From IMG/VR virus record IMGVR_UViG_3300045988_112792: a DNA stretch of 37,376 nucleotides. One strand, written 5' to 3'. Each line of letters opens with the position of its first letter. The stretch's first letter is position 1. The notes beneath the pieces are model-generated. The model ran no database searches, was not told where the DNA came from, and saw only the letters and a list, made by a program, of their open reading frames with translations. This DNA comes from a virus. The translations under genes and the position numbers were made by a program. Positions 1-37,376 of this stretch are shown here, piece after piece.

Positions 1-119
1 CTTTTTTTTTGCAAAAATGCGTTTTTAGCTATTGACATTCGCGGCAAAAAGTAGTATAATATAGGCACGGACAAGATAAGCCGCGGGCGCGAAAAAGCGC
101 CGGGCGTGGAGGGTAAGAA
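1..119. repeat. Terminal direct repeat: bases 1-119 are identical to 37258-37376, so the window is one circularly closed or terminally redundant unit of 37,257 bp
   Basis: Compared base for base by eye. Both copies read C T9 GCAAAAATGCGTTTTTAGCTATTGACATTCGCGGCAAAAAGTAGTATAATATAGGCACGGACAAGATAAGCCGCGGGCGCGAAAAAGCGCCGGGCGTGGAGGGTAAGAA. Confidence 0.95.
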
Positions 120-120
120 A
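11..120 (+). promoter_or_regulatory. Promoter-leader cassette copy A
   Basis: -35 TTGACA 32-37, 17-nt spacer, -10 TATAAT 55-60. Conserved ATAGGCACGGACA follows the -10. Leader hairpin 80-105 (GGCGC/GCGCC stem, GAAAAA loop), RBS GGAGGG 108-113, ATG 121. Its upstream terminator lies across the circular junction at 37237-37267. Confidence 0.8.
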
Positions 121-333
121 ATGAAGCAAATTAGTTTGGACAACGGACACAGCTACATGGACGCGAGCGAGGCCATGACGGAGATTATGGAGCGTGGCCT
201 GTGGGAGACGGTCGTGAGCCTGATGGACGACGGTATACGCGAGGCAGTGGCGGACGATATGGCGCCCTGCAGCGAGGAAGAGTTTTTGAAGGAATATCTC
301 GCGCGTGCCAATGACGATTTGGTCGTTGGCTGA
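121..333 (+). CDS. Small, very acidic hypothetical protein (70 aa); cargo of cassette A
   Basis: ORF track 106-333. ATG at 121 sits 7 nt after GGAGGG, and the GTG at 106 overlaps that RBS. By my count about 17 D/E versus 5 K/R. No recognisable motif. Confidence 0.7.
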   Translation: MKQISLDNGHSYMDASEAMTEIMERGLWETVVSLMDDGIREAVADDMAPCSEEEFLKEYLARANDDLVVG

Positions 334-3484: not shown

Positions 3485-4393
3485 TTAATCGTTGTCTAGC
3501 GTGCAGTTGTCGTCAAGCGTGCAGCCGTCGCCTAGCTCACAGTTGACGCCCAGTTCGCAACAGTCGCCCAGCTCGCAACAACTGCCCAGCTTGCACTCGT
3601 AGCCCAGCGTGCAGTTGTTGCCCAGCTTGCACTCGTCGCCCAGCGTGCAGTGGCTGTATAGCTCGCAACCGTTGCCCAGCGTGCAGTTGTTGCCCAGTTC
3701 GCAGCACATGACCAGTTCGCAACCGCTGCCCAGCGTGCAGCCGTCGCCCAGCTTGCACCCGCCGTATAGCTCGCAACCGCTGCCCAGCGTGCAGTTGTTG
3801 CCCAGCTTGCATCCGCTGCCTAGCCTGCATCTGCTGCCCAACGTGCAGCCGTCGCCGAGCGTGCAATCGCTGCCCAGCGTGCAGTAATTGCTCAGTGCGC
3901 AACACCTACCCAGCGCGCAGTTATAGCCGAGCTCGCAGTAATCGCCCAGTTTGCAACTGCTGCCAAGCGTGCAGCCGTCGCCTAGCTCGCAACTGCCGCC
4001 CAGCGTGCAGCCGTCGCCGAGCGTGCAATCGCTGCCCAGCTCGCAACACCTGTCCAGCGTGCAGTTGTCGCCGAGCGTGCAGCCGTCGCCTAGCTCGCAT
4101 CTGAAGTTCAGCCCGCACCTGCTGCCGAGCGTGCAGCCGTCGCCAAGCTTGCAGCCGTCGCCGAGCGTGCAATCGCTGCCCAGCGTGCAGTTGTCGCCGA
4201 GCGTGCAATCGCTGCCCAGCGTGCAATTGTCGCCGAGCTCGCAGTTGTCGCCCAGCCTGCAATCGTTCGCAAAAATCAGGCGCGCGTTATCGGCGCCAAA
4301 GTCTACTTTTGTCCAATTGCCGCTGGGCAGATGTTTATACCCGCACTCATCGCGCTCGATAGCCTTAAAATCATCCTGCTCGTAACACTTCAT
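3485..4393 (-). CDS. Acidic cysteine-rich hexapeptide-repeat protein (predicted left-handed beta-helix); cargo of cassette D
   Basis: RBS AAGGAG 8 nt before ATG 4393. A 46-aa N-terminal region is followed by 42 uninterrupted LGxxCx hexapeptides (LGDNCT, LGSDCT, LGDGCT ...). About 50 Cys, about 48 D/E versus about 19 K/R by my count. No signal peptide or TM segment. Confidence 0.85.
   Translation of the reverse strand: MKCYEQDDFKAIERDECGYKHLPSGNWTKVDFGADNARLIFANDCRLGDNCELGDNCTLGSDCTLGDNCTLGSDCTLGDGCKLGDGCTLGSRCGLNFRCELGDGCTLGDNCTLDRCCELGSDCTLGDGCTLGGSCELGDGCTLGSSCKLGDYCELGYNCALGRCCALSNYCTLGSDCTLGDGCTLGSRCRLGSGCKLGNNCTLGSGCELYGGCKLGDGCTLGSGCELVMCCELGNNCTLGNGCELYSHCTLGDECKLGNNCTLGYECKLGSCCELGDCCELGVNCELGDGCTLDDNCTLDND
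3500..4255 (-). repeat. Degenerate 18-bp tandem repeat x42 (coding, underlies the hexapeptide array)
   Basis: Units such as CAGCGTGCAGCCGTCGCC / GAGCGTGCAATCGCTGCC recur without interruption. They generate long shadow ORFs in other frames. Confidence 0.9.
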
Positions 4394-4504
4394 GCTTTTT
4401 TCTCCTTGCCCGGCGCTTTCCCGCGCCCGCGGCCTTGACTGTCCGTGCCTATATTATACTACTTTCCGCCGCGATTGTCAATACCAAATCGCACATTTTT
4501 TGCG
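4394..4504 (-). promoter_or_regulatory. Promoter-leader cassette copy D
   Basis: On the minus strand: TTGACA (4476-4481), 17-nt spacer, TATAAT (4453-4458), ATAGGCACGGACA, hairpin GCCGCGGGCGCGGGAAAGCGCCGGGC, then AAGGAG and ATG. Confidence 0.8.
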
Positions 4505-4546
4505 CCAAAATACAAATAATCCCCCTGCCAAAGCAAGGGGATTATT
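4505..4546 (-). terminator. Intrinsic terminator closing the late/post-lysis operon
   Basis: AATAATCCCC ... GGGGATTATT, a 10-bp stem (4515-4524 / 4537-4546). TGTATTTTGG follows on the minus strand. Confidence 0.6.
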
Positions 4547-4560
4547 TGAAGCCGCGCTTA

Positions 4561-4875
4561 TTACCTCCGCTTATAAGCCTCCAGCAGCGCGCGCACGTCG
4601 GCGGTATCTTTGGCCACGTCGCCCAAATCGGCGTCGTACACCATCCGCGCGCCCGGCACCATCGCCGCGTCCATGCCATCGTCGGCCATGCGCGCCATGC
4701 AGTTCTGCGCCATCGACATGCCGCCGTCGTTAAATTTGAGGTGCGCGTCTGCCATGTCGCAGCACCAGTCGGCGGCCTGCCGACTTTTGTCGCGCAGCTC
4801 GTGCGCCTTGGTCGCGTACTTGCGCGCCTCGCGGACGTTTCCGCGCAGCACATCCATTATCCAGCGCATCATCAT
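4561..4875 (-). CDS. Hypothetical protein (104 aa)
   Basis: ORF with ATGA start/stop overlap with the upstream gene. No recognisable motif. Confidence 0.6.
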   Translation of the reverse strand: MMMRWIMDVLRGNVREARKYATKAHELRDKSRQAADWCCDMADAHLKFNDGGMSMAQNCMARMADDGMDAAMVPGARMVYDADLGDVAKDTADVRALLEAYKRR

Positions 4876-5306
4876 GCCAGACGCACCACCCTTACGCTGG
4901 TCAGGTCGGCCGTCGCGCCCGCGCCGCTGGCCTGCAAAGTAAGTGAGTTGACGTTGGCGCAGTTAGGCGCGATGTACCGCGCCGTGCGCGTGCTTATCGC
5001 GTACTGCCCGGCGGCGACGCTTATAGTGCGCAGCGTCTCGGGCAGGGCCACGCCGTTAAGGTATATCTGCACCGTGACAGTACCGGCGGCGGTCGCGGTC
5101 AAGTTAACGTCGCCGTCGATCTGATACGTGCCGCCCGCGCGCACGTTGACCGCCGCGCCGTTAAGCGACAGCGCGCAGCCGGTATCTGTCACGGTCGCGC
5201 CCAGATTAAGCGGCGCGGCAGTCGCAGTCAGCGTCTGCGCCGCGGTATTATACGCCTCCAGCACAGACTTGTAATGTGGGTTTTTTAGGTTGCAGCAGCA
5301 AGCCAT
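4872..5306 (-). CDS. BclA C-terminal-domain-like (C1q/TNF-like jelly-roll) protein
   Basis: Pattern GTYQIDGDVNLTATAAGTVTVQIYLNGVALPE ... SVRVVRLA resembles the BclA/C1q-like C-terminal domain. Unusual MACCCN N-terminus. Confidence 0.45.
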   Translation of the reverse strand: MACCCNLKNPHYKSVLEAYNTAAQTLTATAAPLNLGATVTDTGCALSLNGAAVNVRAGGTYQIDGDVNLTATAAGTVTVQIYLNGVALPETLRTISVAAGQYAISTRTARYIAPNCANVNSLTLQASGAGATADLTSVRVVRLA

Positions 5307-5332
5307 AAGTCATATCCCCTTTCAATAATAAT

Positions 5333-5358
5333 CGCCCGGCGACAAGCGTCGCCGGGCG
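5333..5358 (-). terminator. GC hairpin after 5392-6003 (weak terminator or attenuator)
   Basis: CGCCCGGCGAC AAGC GTCGCCGGGCG, an 11-bp stem. Only a weak ATTATTATT tract follows on the minus strand. Confidence 0.4.
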
Positions 5359-5391
5359 CGCGCTTGTTAAAGCGATGTAGTCGGCTTAGTC

Positions 5392-6003
5392 TTACATGAC
5401 GCCAAAGGCCCCGCCAAAATTGCCGCCGCACTGGCCGCAAGGATTGTACGCGGGCACCGGGTAAGGCCTCAAAGTATTGACGAGGTAGGCGTTTTGCGCG
5501 CACTGGCTCTGGCCAAGCTGCAGCTCGCTTACCTTATCGCGCAGCTGCTGAATCGTGTCGGCCTGCATCAGCGCGCGGGTCTGCTCGCCCTCCGCGTGTA
5601 TCGCGGTGGTTATCGCGCAGGTCTGCCGGTCGGTCTGCGCCGCGAGGTTAGCTATGGCCGTCTGCGTCTTGCAGCAGCAGTCCGCCAGCTGCATCTGAAC
5701 GTTGCGCCCCTCGCCGGTTATGGCATTGTTAAGGGCGTAAGTACTATTGCAGGTGCCGTCGCTTATGCGCTGCAACGCGGAGTTAAGCCCCTGGAACTGC
5801 TGGCCATAAAGTATTTCCTGCTGGCTGGCCGCCATGGCGTACTGGCCGTAATCGCTCTGGCGATTGCCCCACAGGTTGCCGCCGCCCATAAAGACAAAAA
5901 GGAAAAGGATGATAATCCACCATGCGCCGCCGCCGAATCCGTCGTCGCGGTCGCCCTCGGTCGCCGCGCGGATGTCCGCGAGGCTGTAGTTGCTCGCATC
6001 CAT
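5392..6003 (-). CDS. Single-pass membrane protein, unknown function
   Basis: RBS GGAGGG before ATG 6003. TM segment AWWIIILFLFVFMGGG. Cys/Gln-rich ectodomain or cytoplasmic domain. Confidence 0.7.
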   Translation of the reverse strand: MDASNYSLADIRAATEGDRDDGFGGGAWWIIILFLFVFMGGGNLWGNRQSDYGQYAMAASQQEILYGQQFQGLNSALQRISDGTCNSTYALNNAITGEGRNVQMQLADCCCKTQTAIANLAAQTDRQTCAITTAIHAEGEQTRALMQADTIQQLRDKVSELQLGQSQCAQNAYLVNTLRPYPVPAYNPCGQCGGNFGGAFGVM

Positions 6004-6066
6004 AGTAATCCCTCCTATATATGGATATATATATGTATACGCCGAGCGCGCATCGGCGGTATACGC

Positions 6067-6306
6067 TTACTTGAGCAGGCTGCTAAATTCCTTTGCCATC
6101 TCTTTTAGCTCGCTAAACTGCTCTTGCGACATTTGACCTTCGGTCAGCAGTTGCATGACTGCCGCTTTGGGGTCTTTGCCTGACATAAGCTGCTTAAACT
6201 GCTTAAATAGTTTTAACATATTGCCAATGCCGTTACTGCCCGTCGGCATTGTCGGCATTGTCGGCTGAGACGGGCTTTGACCGCCCCCGAACAGATTGCT
6301 GGCCAT
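6067..6306 (-). CDS. Hypothetical protein (79 aa)
   Basis: Strong RBS GGAGG 9 nt before ATG 6306. Overlaps the 3' end of the upstream gene by 74 nt. Confidence 0.6.
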   Translation of the reverse strand: MASNLFGGGQSPSQPTMPTMPTGSNGIGNMLKLFKQFKQLMSGKDPKAAVMQLLTEGQMSQEQFSELKEMAKEFSSLLK

Positions 6307-6646
6307 GTGCCTCTACCTCCTTACGCAGTGCGTCAAATTCCGCGCGCGTCACGTACTTGCTTGTGTCGCTAACGTTCCCCGCTGCCGACGTGTCAATAGG
6401 GACAAGCTTAAAGGCTTGTATTGCATCTGTCCCCGCGCCGCCGGTCTTTTTTACGTAAATCATATCTGCGCCGTTGTTAAATGGCACCCCCATGGGGTTG
6501 GGCGGCGCGGTTGGCTGCTGTGCAGGTGGCACTTGCGACAGCATTGCGTTAAGCCTGTCCATATATGACTGCGCGGCGCCCGGCTGCCACTGCGTATACC
6601 CGCCGTACGGGTTGCCCGCCTGCGCGGCCTGTCCGTATCCGTACAT
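6233..6646 (-). CDS. Gln/Pro-rich hypothetical protein
   Basis: GGGGAG RBS with ATG candidates at 6655, 6652 and 6646 (ORF track 6233-6733). Start choice is uncertain. Confidence 0.55.
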   Translation of the reverse strand: MYGYGQAAQAGNPYGGYTQWQPGAAQSYMDRLNAMLSQVPPAQQPTAPPNPMGVPFNNGADMIYVKKTGGAGTDAIQAFKLVPIDTSAAGNVSDTSKYVTRAEFDALRKEVEAHGQQSVRGRSKPVSADNADNADGQ

Positions 6647-6732
6647 TCGCATCATCTCCCCTGCCCTGATTATACCGCGCACGGCAGGTCGGGCGGGGGC
6701 GGTTGTGTCGCATTCGCGGGCGTTTTCGGGCA

Positions 6733-6763
6733 TAAAAAAAAGACCCGGCGTAATGCCGGGTCT
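6733..6763 (-). terminator. Intrinsic terminator after 6773-7180
   Basis: AGACCCGGC GTAAT GCCGGGTCT followed by T8 on the minus strand. Confidence 0.85.
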
Positions 6764-6772
6764 GCACCCCTT

Positions 6773-7180
6773 TTAATTCATCCGCGCGGCCCATCCGACC
6801 GCGCGGCTTGTGACGAACAACATCTCGTCAGCGTCAAGACCTGTCGCTTCGTACAGGCCTTTAGCGGCGGCGACGTTCCACCGCTCGTCGGCGTCCACGT
6901 CGCCGCCGATGCAGTCAAGTGAGAAGCGCCATTCGTGCCCGGTCGCCGCGACAGTAATCTCGGCGCTCCATCTGTCGCCGAAATCCCCGCAGCTATTATC
7001 AAACCAGTCGACGATAACATCACCGACCGGCGTTGCCCAGACCGCGCCGCCCGCAGGCTGGAAGTACCCGCCGCCGTTGTTGCAGGTGTCGCCATCTGCA
7101 AAGGGGTTGGTTTCGCAGCCCCAAACGCTTATCATGCGGGGAGTGGTGGTGGTATTAATGGTATTATTCATAGTGTTCAT
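6773..7180 (-). CDS. Hypothetical protein (135 aa); cargo of cassette E
   Basis: RBS GGAGGG then ATG 7180. Thr/Asn-rich N-terminus, several Cys and Trp, no recognisable motif. Confidence 0.75.
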   Translation of the reverse strand: MNTMNNTINTTTTPRMISVWGCETNPFADGDTCNNGGGYFQPAGGAVWATPVGDVIVDWFDNSCGDFGDRWSAEITVAATGHEWRFSLDCIGGDVDADERWNVAAAKGLYEATGLDADEMLFVTSRAVGWAARMN

Positions 7181-7295
7181 TTTTGTCCCTCCATGCCCGG
7201 CGCTTTTTCGCGCCCGCAGCCTTGACTGTCCGTGCCTATATTATACTACTTTACGCCGCGATTGTCAATACCAAATCACACATTTTTTGCAACAA
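7181..7295 (-). promoter_or_regulatory. Promoter-leader cassette copy E
   Basis: On the minus strand: TTGACA (7263-7268), 17-nt spacer, TATAAT (7240-7245), ATAGGCACGGACA, hairpin GCTGCGGGCGCGAAAAAGCGCCGGGC, GGAGGG. About 90% identical to copy D over about 115 bp. Confidence 0.8.
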
Positions 7296-7330
7296 AATAC
7301 AAAAATCCCCCGGCCATATCGACCGGGGGA
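7296..7330 (-). terminator. Intrinsic terminator after the lysis cassette / small HTH gene
   Basis: TCCCCCGG ... CCGGGGGA stem (7306-7313 / 7323-7330). TTTTTGTATTTT follows on the minus strand. Confidence 0.75.
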
Positions 7331-7341
7331 ATCTCCAACTC

Positions 7342-7548
7342 CTATCCTTTGCCTAGCGCATCCATAATGCCCGCCATCCTCCGCGCCACCGTGCGCCGGT
7401 CATACCCGACTGCCGCGCCTATGTCGCTGTAGTACGCGCGGTCGAGCAGCCGCATCCGCGCGATCTGCGCGTCGACGCTGCTTAGTCGCGCGTCGTCTAT
7501 CATGTCTGCCAGTGCCGATCTGCTCATGCCCTCAAAAGGGTCGCGCAT
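7342..7548 (-). CDS. Small HTH protein (sigma-70 region-4 / LuxR-like)
   Basis: YSDIGAAVGYDRRTVARRMAGIMDALG helix-turn-helix pattern. GGAGG RBS. Confidence 0.5.
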   Translation of the reverse strand: MRDPFEGMSRSALADMIDDARLSSVDAQIARMRLLDRAYYSDIGAAVGYDRRTVARRMAGIMDALGKG

Positions 7549-9877: not shown

Positions 9878-11903
9878 CCGTCTCACTCCCTTCTATGCCC
9901 GTCGGCATGTCCATGCCGCTATCCGCGTCTGCATCGTCTACCGCCGTCAGGTCGTCCACGTCCACGTCTGCCATCATGGCGACGTAATCCAGCTTTGCAG
10001 CCTGCGCCTCTGCCGTGCTCGCCGTGGTCTGGGGCGGCGTGGGGGCAGTTATAGTCAGAGTGTCTGCGTCGGTTATGATTGCGTTTGTGCCAGCCAGCGC
10101 AAGCACCGTCTGCCCGCCCGTTGCCGTAAAAGGCACGGGCGTAGCCAGCTTGTACGCCACCTGCGCGCCAATCGTAGGAGTAGCCCCTGCCGCATACTCA
10201 TCCCTGTCGCTGATCCACTTACCCGGCAGGGTCTCGCCTGCATAGCTATCGATATGGCCCCACGTCTCTTGCCCCTGTCCTGTGATTGTATCGATTATGC
10301 CACCATAAATGGTGCGAGGCAGTGTCAGCAAGGATTGCTTGCCCGCATATGGCTGATATTCTGCGGGCACTGCCTCGGGCGCATATACGCCTATCTTTAG
10401 GGTCATGTCTACCATCACGCCGGGCACCCAGTCCTTTGCATCCACCTGCAAGGCTATAACATTCTCCTTTTGTGTCCTAAGGCCATATAGTTTGTGCGAC
10501 AAATATGTGCCACTCGTTACTGTGCTGGTGATTTTTAGCCCACGTCCACTTAGCAAGTAATTATTCAGGTATACTATCGCAAAGCTCCGAGCGCCGCTTA
10601 CGTTGTATGTGCCCTTGATTCGGATCGTGCTCTCGCCGATGGGCTCAATTGTTAAACCGTAGGCCTCTATGGAGGAGGTGTCAATATCGTCCGGATTTAG
10701 CAAGTTTGCATTTGATTCCCGCAGCGTTACAAGCTTAGTTCCTGTTATCGGCCTTATATTATCCGGCGACGGTGTGCCGCTGCCCTCCTGCTTAGGCTCC
10801 CAGCTCGCACTTAGCTCCAAAGGATACCCCTCAAGCGCCTCTATGACCACAGGATTACCTGTCACGGTCTGCATCGGCAGTAGCTTATCCACCGTATTCT
10901 TACTCGACCACGCCTTACCCTCCGCGATAACCGTATCGTCGATAATCCCCGCCGCATCCTGCGCGGCCTTTTCAGCCGCCTCCGCACTCGCCGCCGCCGC
11001 GCTCGCAGACTGCGCCGCCGCATCCTTACTGCCCGCCGCCGCCGCGGCGCTGCCCGCCGCATCGCTCGCCGCCGCGCCCGCCGCCGTCTGTGCCGCCTGT
11101 GCCGCGTCCCGCGCCGCCGCCGATTGGCTCGCGCTTCCCGCCGCCGCCGATGCAGACCCCGCCGCGTCCGTAGCCGATTGCGCCGCGCTGCTCTTACTGC
11201 CCGCCGCATCGCTCGCCGATTCAGCCGCCGCCCGCGCCGATCCTGCCGCCGCGTCCGCCGACTCCTTGACGCTATCCAGCGTGCCCGCCGCCGCCGCCGC
11301 GCTTTCCGCTGACGCTTTGGCCGATGTATCTGCCGCCGCCGCCGACTGCGCCGCTGCGCTTGCCGACCCGCTCGCCGCGTCCGCCGACGTTGCCGCGCTC
11401 GCGGCCGACTTGCTCGCCGCACTTGCGCTGCCCGCCGCCGCGTTTGCACTCGACTGCGCCGCCGCCGCCGATCCCGCCGCCGCCGCCGCGCTTTCCTGCG
11501 CCGCCGCCATCGCGCCCTGCGCCGCGTCGCTCGCGTCCAGCACGTCCTTGACCCAGCCGCTTTGCGTATCGGTATCGGGCGGGGTCAGGCTGGGCGCTAT
11601 CGCCGTGGCCGCGATTACCGACTTAGCCACCTTATCATCGACCGTGGCCACTATCTCAATCGCGCCCAGCCCCGCGACTGCCATCGCGTCCATGTCGGGC
11701 GACCACGTGATAACGCCCGTGTCGCTTACGTCCGCCTTGACTATGCGCGCCGTCTCGCCGCGCGTGCGCCGCTGCATCAGCGTCAGCCGCGCGCCCGGAT
11801 AGTCGTTCAGCATCTTCGCGCAGTCGATCTCGACCGCGCGCGCGTACTGCTCGCCCTGTCTGCCCAGCGGTATCGACTTGGGCAGGTCGTATATATCGTA
11901 CAT
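9858..11903 (-). CDS. Tail fibre / receptor-binding protein with a long Ala/Ser-rich coiled region
   Basis: RBS GGAGGGG before ATG 11903 (ORF track extends to 12017). About 200 aa of SA/AA low-complexity repeats (DNA 10947-11537). Position is downstream of the distal tail genes. Confidence 0.7.
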   Translation of the reverse strand: MYDIYDLPKSIPLGRQGEQYARAVEIDCAKMLNDYPGARLTLMQRRTRGETARIVKADVSDTGVITWSPDMDAMAVAGLGAIEIVATVDDKVAKSVIAATAIAPSLTPPDTDTQSGWVKDVLDASDAAQGAMAAAQESAAAAAGSAAAAQSSANAAAGSASAASKSAASAATSADAASGSASAAAQSAAAADTSAKASAESAAAAAGTLDSVKESADAAAGSARAAAESASDAAGSKSSAAQSATDAAGSASAAAGSASQSAAARDAAQAAQTAAGAAASDAAGSAAAAAGSKDAAAQSASAAAASAEAAEKAAQDAAGIIDDTVIAEGKAWSSKNTVDKLLPMQTVTGNPVVIEALEGYPLELSASWEPKQEGSGTPSPDNIRPITGTKLVTLRESNANLLNPDDIDTSSIEAYGLTIEPIGESTIRIKGTYNVSGARSFAIVYLNNYLLSGRGLKITSTVTSGTYLSHKLYGLRTQKENVIALQVDAKDWVPGVMVDMTLKIGVYAPEAVPAEYQPYAGKQSLLTLPRTIYGGIIDTITGQGQETWGHIDSYAGETLPGKWISDRDEYAAGATPTIGAQVAYKLATPVPFTATGGQTVLALAGTNAIITDADTLTITAPTPPQTTASTAEAQAAKLDYVAMMADVDVDDLTAVDDADADSGMDMPTGIEGSETDGKQEV

Positions 11904-32542: not shown

Positions 32543-32811
32543 CACCCGCCCACCACCTTGAGTACCGGCGGTTCGCACTCTGCGTATCCGTCCGGCGGGA
32601 AGTAATCGTATATCTCTCTGAGGGGCAACCCCATCCAGCGCATGATCTCGTATGCCTCGCCCATGTCCCACGAGGCCACGCCGCGTATGCACTTGCTTAC
32701 GTAGTCCACGCTGCGCCTCAGATGCACGGCCACGTCGCTTTGGAGCAAGTCGCGCTCCATCATCGCCGCACGCAATTTGGCGTATGGCCGCGTACGTCTT
32801 TGCTTAGTCAT
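32542..32811 (-). CDS. Small HTH (XRE-like) protein
   Basis: RDLLQSDVAVHLRRSVDYVSKCIRG helix-turn-helix pattern. Confidence 0.55.
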   Translation of the reverse strand: MTKQRRTRPYAKLRAAMMERDLLQSDVAVHLRRSVDYVSKCIRGVASWDMGEAYEIMRWMGLPLREIYDYFPPDGYAECEPPVLKVVGG

Positions 32812-33091
32812 GATACCCTAGCCCCCTCCTCTTGGCGCGCCGCGAACCGTTGCCGCCGTGATCGCTGTAGCACGGGTCGAGCTGGATGAAGCCTCCGTAT
32901 ACGGTCGCTTCGTCCGGCAGTAAGCGCCGCGCGTCCAGCTCATACTGTCGAAAATGCTTATACACACTCTCGACACTCCACAGCTTGCGCGCACGCTCGC
33001 GCGCGTCGGGCAAGTTGTCGGCCAGCAGGTCGATCGCCCAGTGATGCCTGCGGATTGTGCGCGTCTCAAAAGTCACACGATACCTGTCCAT
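32804..33091 (-). CDS. Hypothetical protein (95 aa; alternative start at 33184)
   Basis: Excellent RBS GGGAGG 8 nt before ATG 33091. The longer ORF-track form would start inside the sRNA terminator hairpin. Confidence 0.55.
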   Translation of the reverse strand: MDRYRVTFETRTIRRHHWAIDLLADNLPDARERARKLWSVESVYKHFRQYELDARRLLPDEATVYGGFIQLDPCYSDHGGNGSRRAKRRGLGYHD

Positions 33092-33105
33092 TTCTATATC
33101 CTCCC

Positions 33106-33134
33106 TTGACAACGCTGGCTCGGAGGTGTATAAT
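33106..33134 (+). promoter_or_regulatory. Perfect consensus promoter on the + strand inside the minus-strand early operon
   Basis: TTGACA 33106-33111, exactly 17 nt, TATAAT 33129-33134. Confidence 0.6.
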
Positions 33135-33140
33135 ACGTAT

Positions 33141-33217
33141 GTCAAACGTTGACCCTCCAGAGTGTCAGCTTTGATTGTCCGCATAGCGCCCTCGACACCT
33201 ACGGGGCGCTATTTTTT
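33141..33217 (+). ncRNA. Predicted ~77-nt antisense small RNA (promoter-to-terminator unit)
   Basis: Start inferred about 7 nt after the -10. Internal GTCAA ACG TTGAC hairpin. Terminator TAGCGCCC ... GGGCGCTA (33184-33211) + T6 (33212-33217). No RBS or credible ORF. Confidence 0.45.
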
Positions 33218-33221
33218 AGTA

Positions 33222-33455
33222 TCATTCGTCGTATGATTCAATCGCCCTTTTGGCGGCTTTCCATTTCATCATGCGATGAAAATTCTTGTCAATCTCCGTT
33301 TGGGCGATTTCCGTTAGCACCGGCTTTAGGGCTGATACTTCATATTTTTCGCCGCGCCTGATGTGCGCCTTGTCAAACGTCTTTGCCACCGCCCAATCTA
33401 CTGTCGCATATGACAGGTCAAACATTTTCGCTATGCCGCCGACGGTCATTTTCAT
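33222..33455 (-). CDS. Small HTH protein (Cro/excisionase-type)
   Basis: RBS AAGGAGGAG. TVGGIAKMFDLSYATVDWAV helix-turn-helix. Confidence 0.6.
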   Translation of the reverse strand: MKMTVGGIAKMFDLSYATVDWAVAKTFDKAHIRRGEKYEVSALKPVLTEIAQTEIDKNFHRMMKWKAAKRAIESYDE

Positions 33456-33750: not shown

Positions 33751-33779
33751 TTGATTTTGTCCTGAATGTGTGATAATAT
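33751..33779 (+). promoter_or_regulatory. Repressor promoter (PRM analogue)
   Basis: TTGATT 33751-33756, 17-nt spacer, TAATAT 33774-33779. Overlaps the TGTGTGAT motif. Confidence 0.5.
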
Positions 33780-33804
33780 ATATGTATGGATTGGAGGTGA
33801 TACA

Positions 33805-34347
33805 ATGGCAGACACAATTAATGCTCGCTTTAGGGCTTTGCGCAAACGGCTCGACTTAACTATCGCGCAAATGGCGGATGTGCTGGGCTTGTCGCCGTCC
33901 GGCATATCGGCGATCGAGTGTGCACAGCGTAACGTTACTGATAAGCACATTCGGCTTTTGGCAAGTGCATATCCGCGCCTTAATGTCGAGTGGCTTAAAA
34001 GCGGCGAGGGCGATATATTTTTGCCTGAAAGCGACCATACAGGCAGTATAGATGATCTATGCGCTCAATACGGTCTTGACAGTATGGCCGCGTCTATGCT
34101 GCGCAGCTATGTCCAGCTTGACGCCGAGCATCGTCAGATGATACACGACTGGCTTATGGCGTGGCATGACGACTATGACAAGCGCAAGGCGCGCACCAGC
34201 GGCGGCGATGGCCAGACCGCCGACGATGCAGCGCCCTCCAGCGCAGACCCGGACGCCGACTTTAAACGGCAGGTGCTTGAGGGTCGCGCGCGGCACGAGG
34301 CATACATGGCCGCCCAGCGCGACGCCGAAAGCAAGCAGGCGCAGTAG
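33805..34347 (+). CDS. XRE-family HTH repressor (CI analogue), no S24 peptidase domain
   Basis: RBS GGAGGTG then ATG 33805. LTIAQMADVLGLSPSGISAIECAQRNV HTH. Divergent from the early operon. The C-terminal half lacks a Ser/Lys autoprotease signature. Confidence 0.8.
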   Translation: MADTINARFRALRKRLDLTIAQMADVLGLSPSGISAIECAQRNVTDKHIRLLASAYPRLNVEWLKSGEGDIFLPESDHTGSIDDLCAQYGLDSMAASMLRSYVQLDAEHRQMIHDWLMAWHDDYDKRKARTSGGDGQTADDAAPSSADPDADFKRQVLEGRARHEAYMAAQRDAESKQAQ

Positions 34348-34360
34348 CGACCGACCAATG

Positions 34361-34390
34361 ACCGCCCCACTTTGGGGCGGTTCTTTTTTT
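34361..34390 (+). terminator. Intrinsic terminator after the repressor gene
   Basis: ACCGCCCCA CTT TGGGGCGGT followed by TCTTTTTTT. Confidence 0.85.
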
Positions 34391-34410
34391 ATGCGAGCGG
34401 CAAAATTTTT

Positions 34411-34498
34411 TTGAAAAAAGCGCTTTAGGGTATTGACATTCGCGGCGGAAAGTAGTATAATATAGGCACGGACAATCAATAAATGGAGGACGAGAACG
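34411..34498 (+). promoter_or_regulatory. Promoter cassette copy C (lacks the leader hairpin)
   Basis: TTGACA 34433-34438, 17 nt, TATAAT 34456-34461, ATAGGCACGGACA, then GGAGG and ATG 34499. Confidence 0.8.
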
Positions 34499-35116
34499 AT
34501 GTGTGACGAGATTAAGATTACAAAGGTAGCTGACGACAAGATAGAGGTTCGCACCCCGTACAACCCGCAGTTTGTATCTAAAATAAAGACTGCGGGCGCG
34601 CGCTGGAACGCCATTGATAAGGCGTGGACGATGCACGCCGCCAACATCGACGTGGCGCGCGAAATCCTGCGCGCGGTGTATGGCCGCGACGATATGCCCG
34701 CGGCGGACGAAAAGCTGGTGCGCGTGCGCGTCACCGCGCTGCAAAACATCAGCGCAGACCGCGGGCCGATAGTCCTGCTGGGGCGTATCATCGCTTCCGC
34801 GCGCGGCCGCGATTCCGGCGCGCGCGTCGGTGAAGGCGTTGCGTTTATAGATGGAAAGCCGCAGAGCGGCGGCAGCGTGAAGAACTGGACGACTGAGATT
34901 AGCGAGGGTAGCATTTTCGTGGTGGCCGACGTACCCACCACGCTGCTTGGCGAGCTGGATGAGACCGGCTGGCGTGGGCAGAAGCTGTATCGGTACGAAA
35001 TCATTGACGACGACCGTGACGAGCAGCTCCGCAAGCTGCAGGCGCGCCGCGAAGAGCTGGCCGCCGCCTTGGCCGATATTGATGCGCAGATTAATGCGCT
35101 TAAAGGAGGTAACTAA
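34499..35116 (+). CDS. Hypothetical protein; DUF5710-like N-terminus + C-terminal coiled coil
   Basis: VRTPYNPQFVSKIKTAGARWNAIDKAWTM resembles the (K)ALGARWD...KxW motif. C-terminal LRKLQARREELAAALADIDAQINALK. Confidence 0.65.
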   Translation: MCDEIKITKVADDKIEVRTPYNPQFVSKIKTAGARWNAIDKAWTMHAANIDVAREILRAVYGRDDMPAADEKLVRVRVTALQNISADRGPIVLLGRIIASARGRDSGARVGEGVAFIDGKPQSGGSVKNWTTEISEGSIFVVADVPTTLLGELDETGWRGQKLYRYEIIDDDRDEQLRKLQARREELAAALADIDAQINALKGGN

Positions 35117-35118
35117 AA

Positions 35119-35667
35119 ATGAAGTTTGATATTTTTGCCGTTGATAACGTTAACGGCGGTCGGTGGTTTTTCGATGTGCGTCCGGATGCAGATTGCATCC
35201 GGTACGCGGTGGACATCCCCGACGCGTACGACCCCGTTCGCGGCGACGATGGGCATATATCGTTGACGCGCGAGGGCGAAGAGTATTCGCTGGACGATAT
35301 TTTAACGGCCAACGACATCAATCAACCAGTCTTTAATTGGCCCTACATCACGGGAGACTGCGATGCGCCATGCGTTGCTTTGGAGGTGTTACCCAGCGGC
35401 GAGCGCGAGCCGTTGTCATGGCCGGAGGGCGTTGACGATTTGATAAGCCGTTTTGCGTCAATGGGGCTGCGCTTTAGCATCCACCCCGAGACCGGGCAGC
35501 TGGTAATCAGACCCGAGGATAGCGCCGCGCGGTTTGTGCGCAAGATGTATCCCAAAGAGCTTGAGGTCATCCGGTATGGTCTCAAAAACCGCTGGAATCA
35601 AAGGCGTTACGCTGAGCTTGCGCGGCAGCAGTCAACCGAAAAAGCCGCCGAAAAGGATGGGGAGTGA
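35119..35667 (+). CDS. Hypothetical protein (182 aa)
   Basis: RBS AAAGGAGG. Tightly coupled to flanking genes. No motif recognised. Confidence 0.65.
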   Translation: MKFDIFAVDNVNGGRWFFDVRPDADCIRYAVDIPDAYDPVRGDDGHISLTREGEEYSLDDILTANDINQPVFNWPYITGDCDAPCVALEVLPSGEREPLSWPEGVDDLISRFASMGLRFSIHPETGQLVIRPEDSAARFVRKMYPKELEVIRYGLKNRWNQRRYAELARQQSTEKAAEKDGE

Positions 35668-35669
35668 CG

Positions 35670-36245
35670 ATGATGATCTCCCTGAAGGACTATGCCGACA
35701 AGATCGGCAAGCCCTACCCCTTGGTCTACCAAAAAGCCGTGCGCGGCGGCTTTGAGACCGCGCAAAAGGTCGGCTCGCGCTGGGTGATAGAGGCCAGCGA
35801 GCCGTGGATTGATATGCGCGCAAAAGCAGCGCGCTACCCCGCCGCCGTGCCTGCCGATGCCGACGACTTGGTGCCCGTCGCTGACTACGCGCGCGACCGT
35901 GGTATAGACGTGCGCAACGTCGAGCGCAAGGCCGCCCGCGGCTCACTTAAGACGGCGCGCAAGATTGGGGATCGCTTGTACGTCAGCGCAAGCGAGCCAT
36001 ACACCGACGCGCGGACGCGCTCCCCGCTTGCGGCGCAGCGTGACACAAGCGCCGAGCCACGCCTGATACCGCTTGTTGAATACAGCGAGCGGCTGGGCAA
36101 GCACAAATCGCACATTTTACGTAAGGCTGCGCGCGGCGATTTTAAGACCGCGCGCAAGATCGGCGGGTGCTGGTACATCTCCGCCGATGAGCCTTATGTT
36201 GACCGACGCGTCATTTCTGGTGCGTACAAGGATTGGCGCAAATAG
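35670..36245 (+). CDS. Protein built from three tandem excisionase/MerR-type winged-HTH repeats
   Basis: Three ~55-aa units, each with (D/E)YA..(I/L)G ... RKAARG.(F/L)KTA(R/Q)K(I/V)G..(W/L)(Y/V).(S/A)(A/S).EP(Y/W).D.R. GGGGAG RBS before ATG 35670. Confidence 0.7.
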   Translation: MMISLKDYADKIGKPYPLVYQKAVRGGFETAQKVGSRWVIEASEPWIDMRAKAARYPAAVPADADDLVPVADYARDRGIDVRNVERKAARGSLKTARKIGDRLYVSASEPYTDARTRSPLAAQRDTSAEPRLIPLVEYSERLGKHKSHILRKAARGDFKTARKIGGCWYISADEPYVDRRVISGAYKDWRK

Positions 36246-36278
36246 TTTTAAGATACGAATAAATGGGAGAGTGTAGTT

Positions 36279-36677
36279 ATGACTTTGAATGACGTTATGG
36301 CCGCCGGGAAGCGCGTGGTCGGTTTGTGTGCTGGACGACATCAGCTGCCGGTGGATGAATATATTTACGGCGAAATCAAGGACGTTCTTGATTTCGCCGG
36401 ATTGCTTCATATCGCGGACAAATATGTCCACGAACATTGTAATCCGCGCAATGCGATCGGCAGCGCTATTAACGGCTGGGATGATACTAAAATAGTTGTT
36501 GGCGAGCCGCTGAATGTGATCGTGACGGGACTAACGCCATGCACGGCAGCCGTCATGTATGCTTGCGCGTGTTACGGCGTTGACTTAACGCTATGGCACT
36601 ACGATCGCGAGGCCGACGACTATAAGCCTCAGTCGTTTCGTTTCGCCATAACCCCCAATCGTTTCGCTTCGCCATAA
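36279..36677 (+). CDS. Hypothetical protein (132 aa)
   Basis: RBS GGGAGAG. The 3' end runs through a 22-bp direct repeat. Confidence 0.6.
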   Translation: MTLNDVMAAGKRVVGLCAGRHQLPVDEYIYGEIKDVLDFAGLLHIADKYVHEHCNPRNAIGSAINGWDDTKIVVGEPLNVIVTGLTPCTAAVMYACACYGVDLTLWHYDREADDYKPQSFRFAITPNRFASP

Positions 36678-36680: not shown

Positions 36681-36692
36681 TGCAATAGTTTA

Positions 36693-36722
36693 GTGTCGCT
36701 CGTATGAGCGGCACTTTTTTTT
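36693..36722 (+). terminator. Intrinsic terminator (copy 1 of a duplicated terminator)
   Basis: GTGTCGCTC GTAT GAGCGGCAC + T8. Identical stem-loop at 37237-37258. Confidence 0.85.
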
Positions 36723-36829
36723 GTAAAAATGCGCCTTTGCATATTGACATTCGCGGCGCAAAGTAGTATAATATAGGCACGGACAATCAAAGCCGCGGGC
36801 GCGAAAAAGCGCCGGGCGTGGAGGCGGCA
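36723..36829 (+). promoter_or_regulatory. Promoter-leader cassette copy B
   Basis: TTGACA 36744-36749, 17 nt, TATAAT 36767-36772, ATAGGCACGGACA, hairpin 36792-36817, GGAGG, ATG 36830. Confidence 0.8.
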
Positions 36830-37195
36830 ATGAAATATAAAGTAGTGATCGAAACCAAAAGCCGGTCGCTGTGCGGCACAGTAACCGCGCAGCTGGAGCC
36901 GACATACAAGCACGTAAGCATCCCGTCCGGCGCTTACGCCACGCCTGCCGACTTTTGCCGCAAGGCATTGGACGGCCTCAAGGATCTGGCGCGCGACGAC
37001 ATAGAGCGCGCCATCGACGAGGCCGGTATGGACGCGGCGCGCGCAGGCTTTGAGGCCGGGCGCGACACGTACTATAGCATACGCTTGTACGCGGTAGACG
37101 CGGACGGCGAGCCGATTAACCCGCGGCGCGCGGATGCGCATAAAGGGTTTTGGACGTCCAAAGTGTTTGGGCAGGAGTATGTGACGCGTCGATGA
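36830..37195 (+). CDS. Hypothetical protein (121 aa); cargo of cassette B
   Basis: ATG 36830 after GGAGG (ORF track 36818). No motif recognised. Confidence 0.65.
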   Translation: MKYKVVIETKSRSLCGTVTAQLEPTYKHVSIPSGAYATPADFCRKALDGLKDLARDDIERAIDEAGMDAARAGFEAGRDTYYSIRLYAVDADGEPINPRRADAHKGFWTSKVFGQEYVTRR

Positions 37196-37236
37196 GCCTT
37201 ACGTCAATCGGCGCGTATCAGGTGCAAATAGATTTA

Positions 37237-37267
37237 GTGTCGCTCGTATGAGCGGCACTTTTTTTTT
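37237..37267 (+). terminator. Intrinsic terminator (copy 2)
   Basis: GTGTCGCTC GTAT GAGCGGCAC + T9. The T-run continues into the terminal repeat. Confidence 0.85.
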
Positions 37268-37376
37268 GCAAAAATGCGTTTTTAGCTATTGACATTCGCG
37301 GCAAAAAGTAGTATAATATAGGCACGGACAAGATAAGCCGCGGGCGCGAAAAAGCGCCGGGCGTGGAGGGTAAGAA
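37258..37376. repeat. Second copy of the terminal direct repeat (equals 1-119; contains the duplicate image of promoter cassette A)
   Basis: Identical to 1-119 by direct comparison. Confidence 0.95.

Follow-up and report, generated by a model that had tools for sequence, protein, structure and literature searches.

Classical morons of lambdoid and HK97-type phages each carry their own unrelated promoter, and their arrival is thought to proceed by illegitimate recombination. Short, strongly expressed, terminator-ended RNAs of phage immunity or early regions, such as c4 of P1/P7 (acting on ant/icd), sar of P22 and OOP of lambda, pair with phage leaders or ribosome-binding sites (RBS), c4 doing so in trans via short boxes, and small RNAs of the RsaE/RoxS type in Firmicutes combine an unpaired C-rich loop complementary to the G-rich Shine-Dalgarno (SD) sequence with a Rho-independent terminator. 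Promoter-early-stem-loop (PeSL) elements are defined by a strong sigma-70-type promoter, an AT-rich tract, a stem-loop or terminator, an SD at the 3' edge, an association with ORFans and recombination-mediated insertions and deletions (indels) (PMC2839356, PMC4122927), and in a described subclass the hairpin lies downstream of the -10. In anti-CRISPR (acr) operons, Aca2 and Aca1 bind hairpins in the 5' untranslated region (5'-UTR) (PMC13551039). Here we analyzed the IMG/VR virus record IMGVR_UViG_3300045988_112792 (37,376 nt, this whole stretch being referred to as the window), in which five near-identical cassettes of terminator, consensus promoter and leader precede accessory genes, among them a homologue of the AcrIC5 anti-CRISPR family. 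We conclude that the cassettes are very probably a portable expression and recombination module, and we describe a predicted small RNA that is complementary to their leaders and SD sequences.

The window is a circularly assembled phage genome of approximately 37,257 bp (end overlap 119 nt, GC content 57%) encoding an integrase, a CI-type helix-turn-helix (HTH) repressor, HK97-type morphogenesis genes and a holin, and the nearest characterized match of its TerL is approximately 60% identical and comes from Butyrivibrio siphoviruses; the bearer of the cassettes is a temperate siphovirus of the human gut. A scan for TTGACA-N17-TATAATATAGGCACGGACA gave six exact matches, at 32, 34433, 36744 and 37289 on the plus strand and at 4481 and 7268 on the minus strand (shuffled sequences, 0), and as the window ends overlap by 119 nt, the matches at 32 and 37289 represent one copy. 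This leaves five unique cassettes, A, B and C on the plus and D and E on the minus strand, precisely where a preliminary description of the sequence had placed them. All five carry hexamers matching the consensus at 12 of 12 positions with a spacer of 17 nt, and directly upstream of each lies a terminator-like hairpin followed by a T-run, both as described earlier. Within the window, variation in the 44-nt core is limited to three spacer positions and the base following the -35 (T/A), so that the copies match at 41 or more of 44 positions, slightly above the 40 previously given. The conserved block starts in an A-run/T-run tract approximately 25 to 5 nt upstream of the -35, spans the promoter and reaches about 13 nt past the -10; in cassettes A, B, D and E it also takes in a 26-nt hairpin, GC(C/T)GCGGGCGCG(A/G)(A/G)AAAGCGCCGGGC, which ends 2 nt before GGAG and is followed by the ATG, with cassette C again the exception in having a short leader devoid of this hairpin. 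The repeat extents quoted earlier also held in our repeat comparison (A versus B, 119 nt at 84% identity plus a 41-nt terminator at 93%; D versus E, 136 nt at 88%). A single open reading frame (ORF) between promoter and terminator makes up each of the units A, B, D and E. Near-perfect promoters outside the cassettes were detected in the window at 33106 (+) and 33728 (-).

Comparison with approximately 12 collinear relatives, all of gut-metagenome origin and 71-99.9% identical to the window, revealed extensive exchange of the genes behind the cassettes, which we refer to as cargo in slots A to E. In these relatives, homology to the window breaks on the 5' side just after the promoter core or at the ATG, and on the 3' side at the stop codon or the terminator. 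The hexapeptide-repeat gene of slot D is replaced in L001, L021, L147 and L149: in L001, positions 6935-7412 stand in for window positions 4435-3433, with the break just past the promoter core and a different leader following it, and in L021, positions 1413-1708 stand in for 4389-3479, with breaks at the ATG and the stop codon. Other cargo, 1.3 kb long, fills slot A of L017, L019 lacks this slot, and the first genes of the slot C operon are swapped in L019, L021 and L022, the alternative cargo in relatives including a small GNAT acetyltransferase. Displaced cargo leave remnants of their 3' ends in L001 and L017. A fuzzy search (up to 8 mismatches) identified 4-6 cassettes per genome, and each of them was classed by upstream terminator type, leader type and cargo family. 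The resulting 13 cargo families are mixed combinatorially over the slots, with three to five families per slot type. The AcrIC5-like family (F01) was found nine times behind A/B-type terminators (T_ab) and twice behind D-type terminators (T_d; L147 and L149). In the window this gene occupies slot A, and three relatives carry it in slot D, as judged by the upstream terminator for L147 and L149 and by the downstream flank for L148. Likewise, F05 and F08 both occur in T_d and T_e slots, the beta-helix family and a 134-aa family each occupy D and E slots, and the main leader variants (AGATAAGC, ATCAA... and GTCAAGGC) are independent of both slot and cargo.

Comparison of paralogous slots within a genome gave 93% identity for the 44-nt core, with terminator, leader and coding sequence at the background level of 57-68%, and among orthologues the core reaches 94% compared to 87-90% for its surroundings. 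The core alone is therefore kept uniform, by selection, gene conversion or both. Even so, the spacer is not invariant and can read GCGG[C/T]NN[A/G] in relatives, and the approximately 13 nt after the -10, previously taken as invariant, read ATAG[G/A/T]CACGG[A/G][C/T]A there. The breakpoints, the distribution of 13 families over 4-6 slots and the change of slot by the AcrIC5-like gene together back the earlier proposal of a mobile, PeSL-like regulatory cassette. The accompanying proposal that all accessory genes are driven by cassettes is overstated, because the exonuclease gene at approximately 414-1643 and the block at 4561-6733 look accessory and have no cassette.

The leader hairpin also travels by itself. 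An identical hairpin with its SD occurs twice in an unrelated element of 54.7 kb (L003), between small genes and without a promoter, and L156 and L003 align nowhere but between the first hairpin base and the stop codon, the homologous gene being cassette cargo in L156; hairpin, SD and ORF therefore form a transferable unit. In 16 distinct copies, the structure (((.(.(((((......))))))))) is paired in 144 of 144 pair cells, with one pair appearing as GC (14), GU (1) and AU (1). Among 15 distinct hairpins (53 copies), the stem changes amount to three C-to-T sites, one compensatory pair and one disruptive singleton, the C-to-T sites keeping G.U pairing in the sense RNA only, and the remaining variation falls into seven A-rich loops and one bulge. 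Covariation, which the preliminary description had proposed to look for, is thus present, with all stem changes but one retaining pairing, although its statistics are weak. As it lacks a U-tract, the hairpin is not a terminator, and comparison with Rfam families gave no match. We consider it probable, with modest support from these sequence comparisons, that the hairpin acts as a structure in the sense-strand RNA.

Conservation past the -10 had been taken to suggest a dedicated regulator or an RNA element, and for this we found a concrete candidate, a small RNA predicted where the minus-strand early operon leaves a non-coding gap, immediately before the RBS of the gene at 32804-33092. The locus is present in nine of the nine genomes covering the region (window, L002, L019, L021, L022, L150, L152, L154 and L156). 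Promoter and terminator are kept, and none of the nine deviates in the -35, the -10 or the block CTTTGATTGTCCGCA; the invariant block reaches CTTTGATTGTCCGCATAGCG in eight of them, with the terminator stem after it being rewritten in L154. Because indels of 1-2 nt break the reading frames, the region is non-coding. The predicted fold comprises a 5' stem-loop, a single-stranded linker and the terminator (minimum free energy z = -4.7), and RNAalifold showed compensatory double changes in 8 of 19 pairs. Each of the eight distinct sequences leaves CCUCC (apical loop) and UGUCCG (linker) unpaired, and within the GCUUUGAUUGUCCG stretch the single-stranded part is the linker UGUCCGC (33176-33182) alone. 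It is thus likely that the predicted small RNA is a real gene. Next to it, a 77-aa early gene (33222-33455, minus strand), located between the cro-like gene and the small RNA, is found only in the window, L002 and L154, and in L019, L021, L022, L150, L152 and L156 homology ends exactly at the small RNA terminator (window position 33218).

The motifs of the small RNA are complementary to both invariant parts of the leaders, namely CGGACA (approximately +2 to +7 of the predicted mRNA) and the SD GGAGG. Contiguous helices between small RNA and cassettes extend over 16 nt in E (2 G.U), 14 nt in B (0), 14 nt in D (2 G.U) and 11 nt in C (0). Two-strand cofolding gave a net binding of -16 to -24 kcal/mol for five of five leaders, compared to -6 to -8 (sd 3) for shuffled leaders, and in all five predicted complexes the small RNA lies on leader and SD with the mRNA hairpin folded in between. 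As the unconstrained ranking by duplex energy was too noisy, helix length, cofolding and initiation-region controls were used instead. In the latter, the cassettes ranked 1, 2, 3, 5 and 8 for small RNA binding among 89 SD-bearing initiation regions, corresponding to the 91 such regions of the genome minus two cis-antisense entries. In relatives, the recurring variants of the seed site, CGGGCA and CGGATA, are compatible with G.U pairing, and the disruptive CGAACA is a singleton. The coordinates of all features are given in Table 1.

Table 1 Cassettes, predicted small RNA and cargo genes in the window (positions in nt)
Feature	Position	Strand	Description
Cassette A, first part	37236-37376	+	terminator 37236-37259 + T-run; core 37287-37330; runs on as window 1-120 (end overlap 119 nt)
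Cassette A	30-120	+	core 30-73; box 1 68-73; hairpin 80-105; SD 108-113
Cassette B, terminator	36692-36723	+	ends slot C operon; hairpin 36692-36715; 10-bp stem + T8; 93% identical to cassette A terminator
Cassette B, UP-element-like A-tract/T-tract	36724-36741	+	
Cassette B, promoter core	36742-36785	+	-35 36744-36749; -10 36767-36772; predicted start ~36779; 12/12 consensus, 17-nt spacer
Cassette B, leader box 1 CGGACAATCAAAGC	36780-36793	+	perfect complement of small RNA 33168-33181; 14-nt helix, 0 G.U; paired in cofold
Cassette B, leader hairpin	36792-36817	+	26 nt; 9 pairs, two bulged G, A-rich hexaloop
Cassette B, SD GGAGG and ATG	36820-36824; 36830	+	
Cassette C	34360-34498	+	terminator 34360-34382; core 34431-34474; SD 34485-34489; leader short, no hairpin
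Cassette D	4408-4548	-	terminator 4548-4513; core 4483-4440; box 1 4445-4432; hairpin 4433-4408
Cassette E	7195-7330	-	terminator 7330-7306; core 7270-7227; box 1 7232-7217; hairpin 7220-7195
Small RNA gene (predicted)	33106-33217	+	perfect promoter 33106-33134; transcript ~33141-33217 (~77 nt)
Small RNA, parts		+	5' stem-loop with unpaired CCCUCC 33153-33158; GCUUUGAUUGUCCG 33168-33181; terminator 33183-33212 + U-run
Cargo A	121-333	+	70 aa, acidic; by sequence an AcrIC5-family anti-CRISPR homologue; own terminator ~345-370
Cargo B	36830-37195	+	121-aa ORFan; no Pfam, PHROG or PADLOC match; homologues only in own phage family, 78-93% identity
Cargo C, four-gene operon	34499-36677	+	205 aa (phrog_18108), 182 aa, 193 aa (HTH_17 x3), 132 aa
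Cargo D	3485-4393	-	302-aa cysteine-rich hexapeptide-repeat (left-handed beta-helix) protein; Pfam Hexapep E 9e-60; 18-nt DNA periodicity
Cargo E	6773-7180	-	135-aa ORFan; terminator next, 6763-6741

Taken together, we propose a model in which each cassette, built from a predicted intrinsic terminator, an A/T-rich UP-element-like tract, a full-consensus housekeeping-sigma promoter, a leader starting with ACGGACA..., usually the 26-nt hairpin and a strong SD, serves to insulate a single accessory gene or operon and, judged from its sequence, should drive strong expression. The cassettes also provide approximately 100 bp of homology for the exchange, insertion and deletion of cargo among relatives, in the manner of PeSLs in T4-type phages, which is shown by where homology breaks and by how cargo, slot and leader types are mixed. 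The extra conservation would act at the RNA level, with the hairpin predicted to fold in the sense mRNA (weak but consistent support), and the small RNA from the early/immunity region would pair with the 5' end of the cassette mRNA through UGUCCG and with the SD through CCUCC, leaving the hairpin folded between the two sites. In this way it would occlude the SD, and perhaps alter mRNA decay, on all cassette mRNAs together, doing the job that Aca repressors do for anti-CRISPR operons. The occlusion of the SD suggests repression, whereas pairing at the 5' end could instead stabilize the mRNA. The small RNA is also fully cis-antisense to the leader of the next early gene and would therefore tie the accessory regulon to the lysis-lysogeny circuit. 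We judge this account as a whole to be somewhat more probable than improbable as the best explanation; regulation of the cassettes by the small RNA in trans appears possible at a little under even chances, and the furthest-reaching claim, that the small RNA is the master regulator of a modular, recombination-shuffled counter-defence and accessory regulon, an RNA-based equivalent of Aca control, is put forward tentatively.

Several points weigh against this model. That the promoters are active, where transcription starts and that the small RNA exists are predictions. Read on the minus strand, the small RNA gene is a promoter-less, leader-like paralogue (CGGACAATCAAAG / GCGGACAATCAAAG ... GGGAGGA-ATG of the next early gene), for which reason the complementarity may come by descent and any action of the RNA may be confined to cis, where it is certainly antisense to the early transcript. 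Since the cassettes are paralogues themselves, their high ranks count as one event and not as five. Approximately 40% of the cassettes in the family, slot A included, have the leader AAGATAAG with three central mismatches to the small RNA, and here only CGGACA and the SD remain; moreover, CCUCC is a generic anti-SD that would pair with any strong SD, unconstrained duplex scores are unexceptional in this GC-rich genome, and G.U-rich helices of 13-16 nt arise by chance. The covariation score of the hairpin is attained by 60 of 500 shuffles. As the search patterns demanded much of the core, its measured conservation is biased upward, and its near-identity could stem from gene conversion and not from selection. 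Finally, the assignment to anti-defence concerns one of 13 cargo families.

A cassette system without any dedicated regulator accommodates several of these observations. Here the units would be constitutive strong moron promoters that resemble each other through recent duplication and gene conversion, the hairpin a generic stabilizer or translation insulator, and the small RNA a cis-only element whose match to the leaders reflects common ancestry, as its leader-like minus strand and the mismatches of the common AAGATAAG leader would have it. The orthologous core, which is barely better kept than its flanks (94% versus 87-90%), the mosaic of variant states, which indicates frequent recombination among copies, and the hairpin with SD inside an operon of L003, where both promoter and box 1 are missing, fit this explanation as well. 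What it leaves out is that the invariant and always unpaired motifs of the small RNA match exactly the two invariant motifs of the leaders while the stems vary freely, that the recurring seed variants preserve G.U pairing and the disruptive one is a singleton, and that cofolding yields one and the same two-site complex for all five cassettes, the mismatched type included; we regard it as a serious contender with a probability of roughly one third. A protein could alternatively bind the core, the 5'-UTR hairpin RNA or both, either the Aca-like HTH protein with three HTH_17 domains (35664-36245) or the CI-type repressor (33766-34347). Aca proteins normally keep strong acr promoters repressed, bind 5'-UTR hairpins as well and can control further loci (PMC13551039); an AcrIC5 homologue is among the cargo, no relative lacks the HTH_17 gene while the genes ahead of it in the operon are exchanged, resembling an acr-aca layout, and the conserved hairpin adjoins the SD. 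Yet no dyad symmetry and no inverted or direct repeat operator was found between -35 and +20 in any cassette copy, the core has none of the operator-like TGTGTGAT motifs of the cI/cro region, which are not conserved upstream of it either (a reading of the TGTGTGAT-like motif upstream of cassette E as CI operator was rejected, as it is not kept in orthologues), the HTH_17/excisionase assignment is weak (E ~1e-7) so that the protein may simply be an excisionase, and copy C, like other leaders devoid of the hairpin, keeps the same promoter. A protein regulator thus seems rather unlikely to us, at about one chance in four.

The hairpin might also be a DNA-level recombination site that moves cargo, similar to a PeSL hotspot or to an attC site, and not an RNA element at all. 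The start of L156/L003 homology at the first base of the hairpin, the hairpins flanking an ORF on both sides in L003, several replacements that break at hairpin or ATG, and the mapping of PeSL crossovers in and around stem-loops (PMC2839356) would be in line with such a site. All three single-base stem changes are C-to-T in the sense strand, however, giving G.U in the mRNA but an A.C mismatch on the other strand, the 26-nt hairpin has no integron-type core sites, an integron integrase is not present, and other breakpoints lie just past the core or at stop codons, which means that ordinary homologous recombination over the approximately 100-bp cassette suffices; we consider this explanation unlikely. 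Far less probable still is that the promoter-proximal hairpin is a Racr, i.e., a solitary mimic of a host CRISPR repeat transcribed from a strong promoter. Solitary repeat units are often located just past a promoter and cluster with acr genes, and a type I-C Racr lies 11 nt from a prophage AcrIC5 homologue (PMC10651486). The hairpin studied here is GC-rich and in some copies followed by GTGGA; on the other hand, the bases after it vary (GT, AT, AA, GC or AC before GGAG) and serve as SD, and it is bulged with a 6-nt A-rich loop. It also lacks the ATTGAAA(C/T) 3' handle of type I-C repeats. Patterns of hairpin plus SD (NNGGAG/NNGGA required), which are blind to CRISPR-array repeats, had no real copies in approximately 185,000 species genomes. 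On these grounds, both the attC-like and the Racr reading were rejected.

Exact or near-exact cores are scarce (2 IMG/VR contigs and 9 loci in human-gut metagenome assemblies), and additional phage-sized relatives were found via homologues of cargo A. Exact and relaxed scans for the promoter core revealed no cassette in approximately 185,000 GTDB species genomes, and blastn of the cassette against GenBank phages gave no match. The promoters with the common TATAATATAGGCACGG in L014 and L015, obtained from the core scans, are unrelated and were treated as chance or generic strong promoters; the hairpin-pattern matches in ten viral contigs (L004-L013) represent one chance match within conserved coding sequence, and more than 120 matches of a degenerate hairpin pattern to species genomes were all noise from high-GC genomes. 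Scanning the two small RNA motifs over species genomes gave 11 matches, all by chance and in coding regions. In Rfam, no match at the gathering score was obtained for the whole window, and the small RNA and cassette B gave only sub-threshold, terminator-driven matches.

Regarding the cargo, the protein of slot A matches Pfam PF22147 (E 1.5e-10; 41.5 bits, curated cut-off 27), as do 29 of 29 clusters of its homologues. Its AF2 model (pLDDT 91) has 7yhr (AcrIC5) as the top fold match in the PDB by a wide margin (probability 0.82, TM 0.46/0.53, weak E 0.28), and a sequence search of the PDB returned spurious designed-repeat proteins only and not AcrIC5. By sequence, cargo A is a homologue of the AcrIC5 anti-CRISPR family. 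An AcrIC5 homologue from a Bifidobacterium prophage inhibits type I-C CRISPR-Cas (PMC10651486). No Aca HTH gene was found in the AcrIC5 unit, which is monocistronic, and the HTH_17 protein sits in unit C. This 193-aa protein, with three HTH_17/excisionase-like repeats, may be an excisionase or an Aca-like regulator; if it is an excisionase, the cassette would need silencing in lysogens. For most of the cargo, Pfam and PHROGs were uninformative, the genes being mostly ORFans, and no cargo matched a defence-system model of PADLOC. The cargo set is probably enriched for counter-defence or host-interaction genes, which we infer from the AcrIC5-family gene among them, one member being supported and the others assigned by extension.

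The most divergent AcrIC5-like homologue (64% identity) lies at 70-282 of L146 (a contig of Logan SRR25322305), a different and GC-richer element in which it adjoins Nmad4 and Amidoligase_2 genes; no cassette is visible there, the start of the contig being cut. In the cargo D protein, C-x-L-G-x-x occurs approximately 45 times, relatives have beta-helix variants of 404 aa and 269-297 aa, and L003 holds a related protein with YGNAKIYG repeats. At the 3' end of the last slot C gene, directly before the terminator of cassette B, a 26-nt tandem duplication (36622-36673, plus strand, 85% identity) may be a recombination scar.

Two accessory-looking loci have no cassette. The gene at 372-1643 (+; probable start ~414) has a membrane-anchored product that combines a (PE)n repeat with a DEDDh/RNase T exonuclease domain and an acidic tail; PDC-S48 and DEDDh, two candidate defence models of PADLOC, match it, and the gene may serve prophage-encoded defence or exclusion. 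The block at 4561-6733 (-), between cassettes E and D, comprises four genes with no obvious promoter, among them one for a BclA_C-like (sub-threshold) and one for a Gly/Cys-rich protein; L156 lacks the block, and in L152 it varies. Exactly two copies of the 13-mer TGTGATAATATAT, an extended -10, are present, at 396-408 and 33769-33781 on the plus strand, before the exonuclease and cI-like genes (shuffled sequences, 0.04), which suggests a second common 'lysogenic' promoter type or a CI-controlled pair. Furthermore, a 719-aa tail-fibre-like gene (Ala/Gly-rich) contains GC-rich repeats with 21/42-nt periodicity at 10933-11525 (-).

If the model is correct, a gene placed behind a cassette acquires a promoter of maximal strength, a leader that the small RNA recognizes at both its extreme 5' end and its SD, and a hairpin joining the two boxes. 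Control of dispersed, interchangeable genes by one phage small RNA via a common leader, as predicted here, would be rare, and the small RNA offers a testable answer to how very strong accessory and anti-defence promoters are restrained where an Aca-type repressor is lacking. 'Guilt by cassette' would then be a route to new anti-defence genes in gut phages, the cassette and the unit of hairpin and SD providing a sequence handle for candidate counter-defence ORFans in metagenomes (13 families so far). Moreover, homology-guided shuffling of the PeSL type would extend from lytic T4-type to temperate gut phages and be linked to an anti-CRISPR gene.

In comparison with PeSLs, the cassette is likewise a repeated composite of approximately 100 bp with an AT-rich tract, a strong sigma-70-type promoter (its activity being predicted), a terminating stem-loop and an SD at the 3' edge, as well as a second hairpin past the -10; both are found preferentially next to variable ORFans, insertions, deletions and replacements between close relatives map to the elements, and, like PeSLs, the cassettes are predicted to insulate the transcription of cargo. 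PeSLs, however, reside in hyperplastic regions of lytic T4-type myoviruses in dozens of loosely similar copies, whereas the 37-kb temperate siphovirus carries 4-6 near-identical ones, in which terminator and leader hairpin are separate, hairpin, SD and ORF can travel without the promoter, and a matching small RNA is present. The cassette is thus a PeSL analogue and not a member by descent, the phage lineage being the one testable feature in which it departs from PeSLs. With morons it shares the organization into promoter-gene-terminator units that carry accessory genes between core genes near the lysis, integrase and immunity regions, but here one cassette is common to all units and also supplies the homology for exchange. 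The likeness to acr-aca systems lies in a very strong promoter before an anti-CRISPR homologue, a conserved 5'-UTR hairpin by the RBS and the logic of one regulator for several loci; here the promoter has no operator repeat, the AcrIC5 unit has no Aca gene, and the candidate regulator is an RNA and not an HTH protein. Like c4, sar and OOP, the small RNA is short, terminator-ended and derived from the immunity/early region, and it is predicted to pair with a phage leader and RBS, although its predicted targets are 4-6 dispersed, recombining cassettes plus one cis site, and its boxes are split by a folded hairpin. With RsaE/RoxS-type RNAs it has the C-rich unpaired loop motif and the terminator in common, while being phage-encoded, having an additional leader-specific seed and showing no sequence or Rfam relationship. 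By analogy, phage immunity antisense RNAs and the C-rich-loop RNAs of Firmicutes would be the closest mechanistic precedents for the predicted small RNA.

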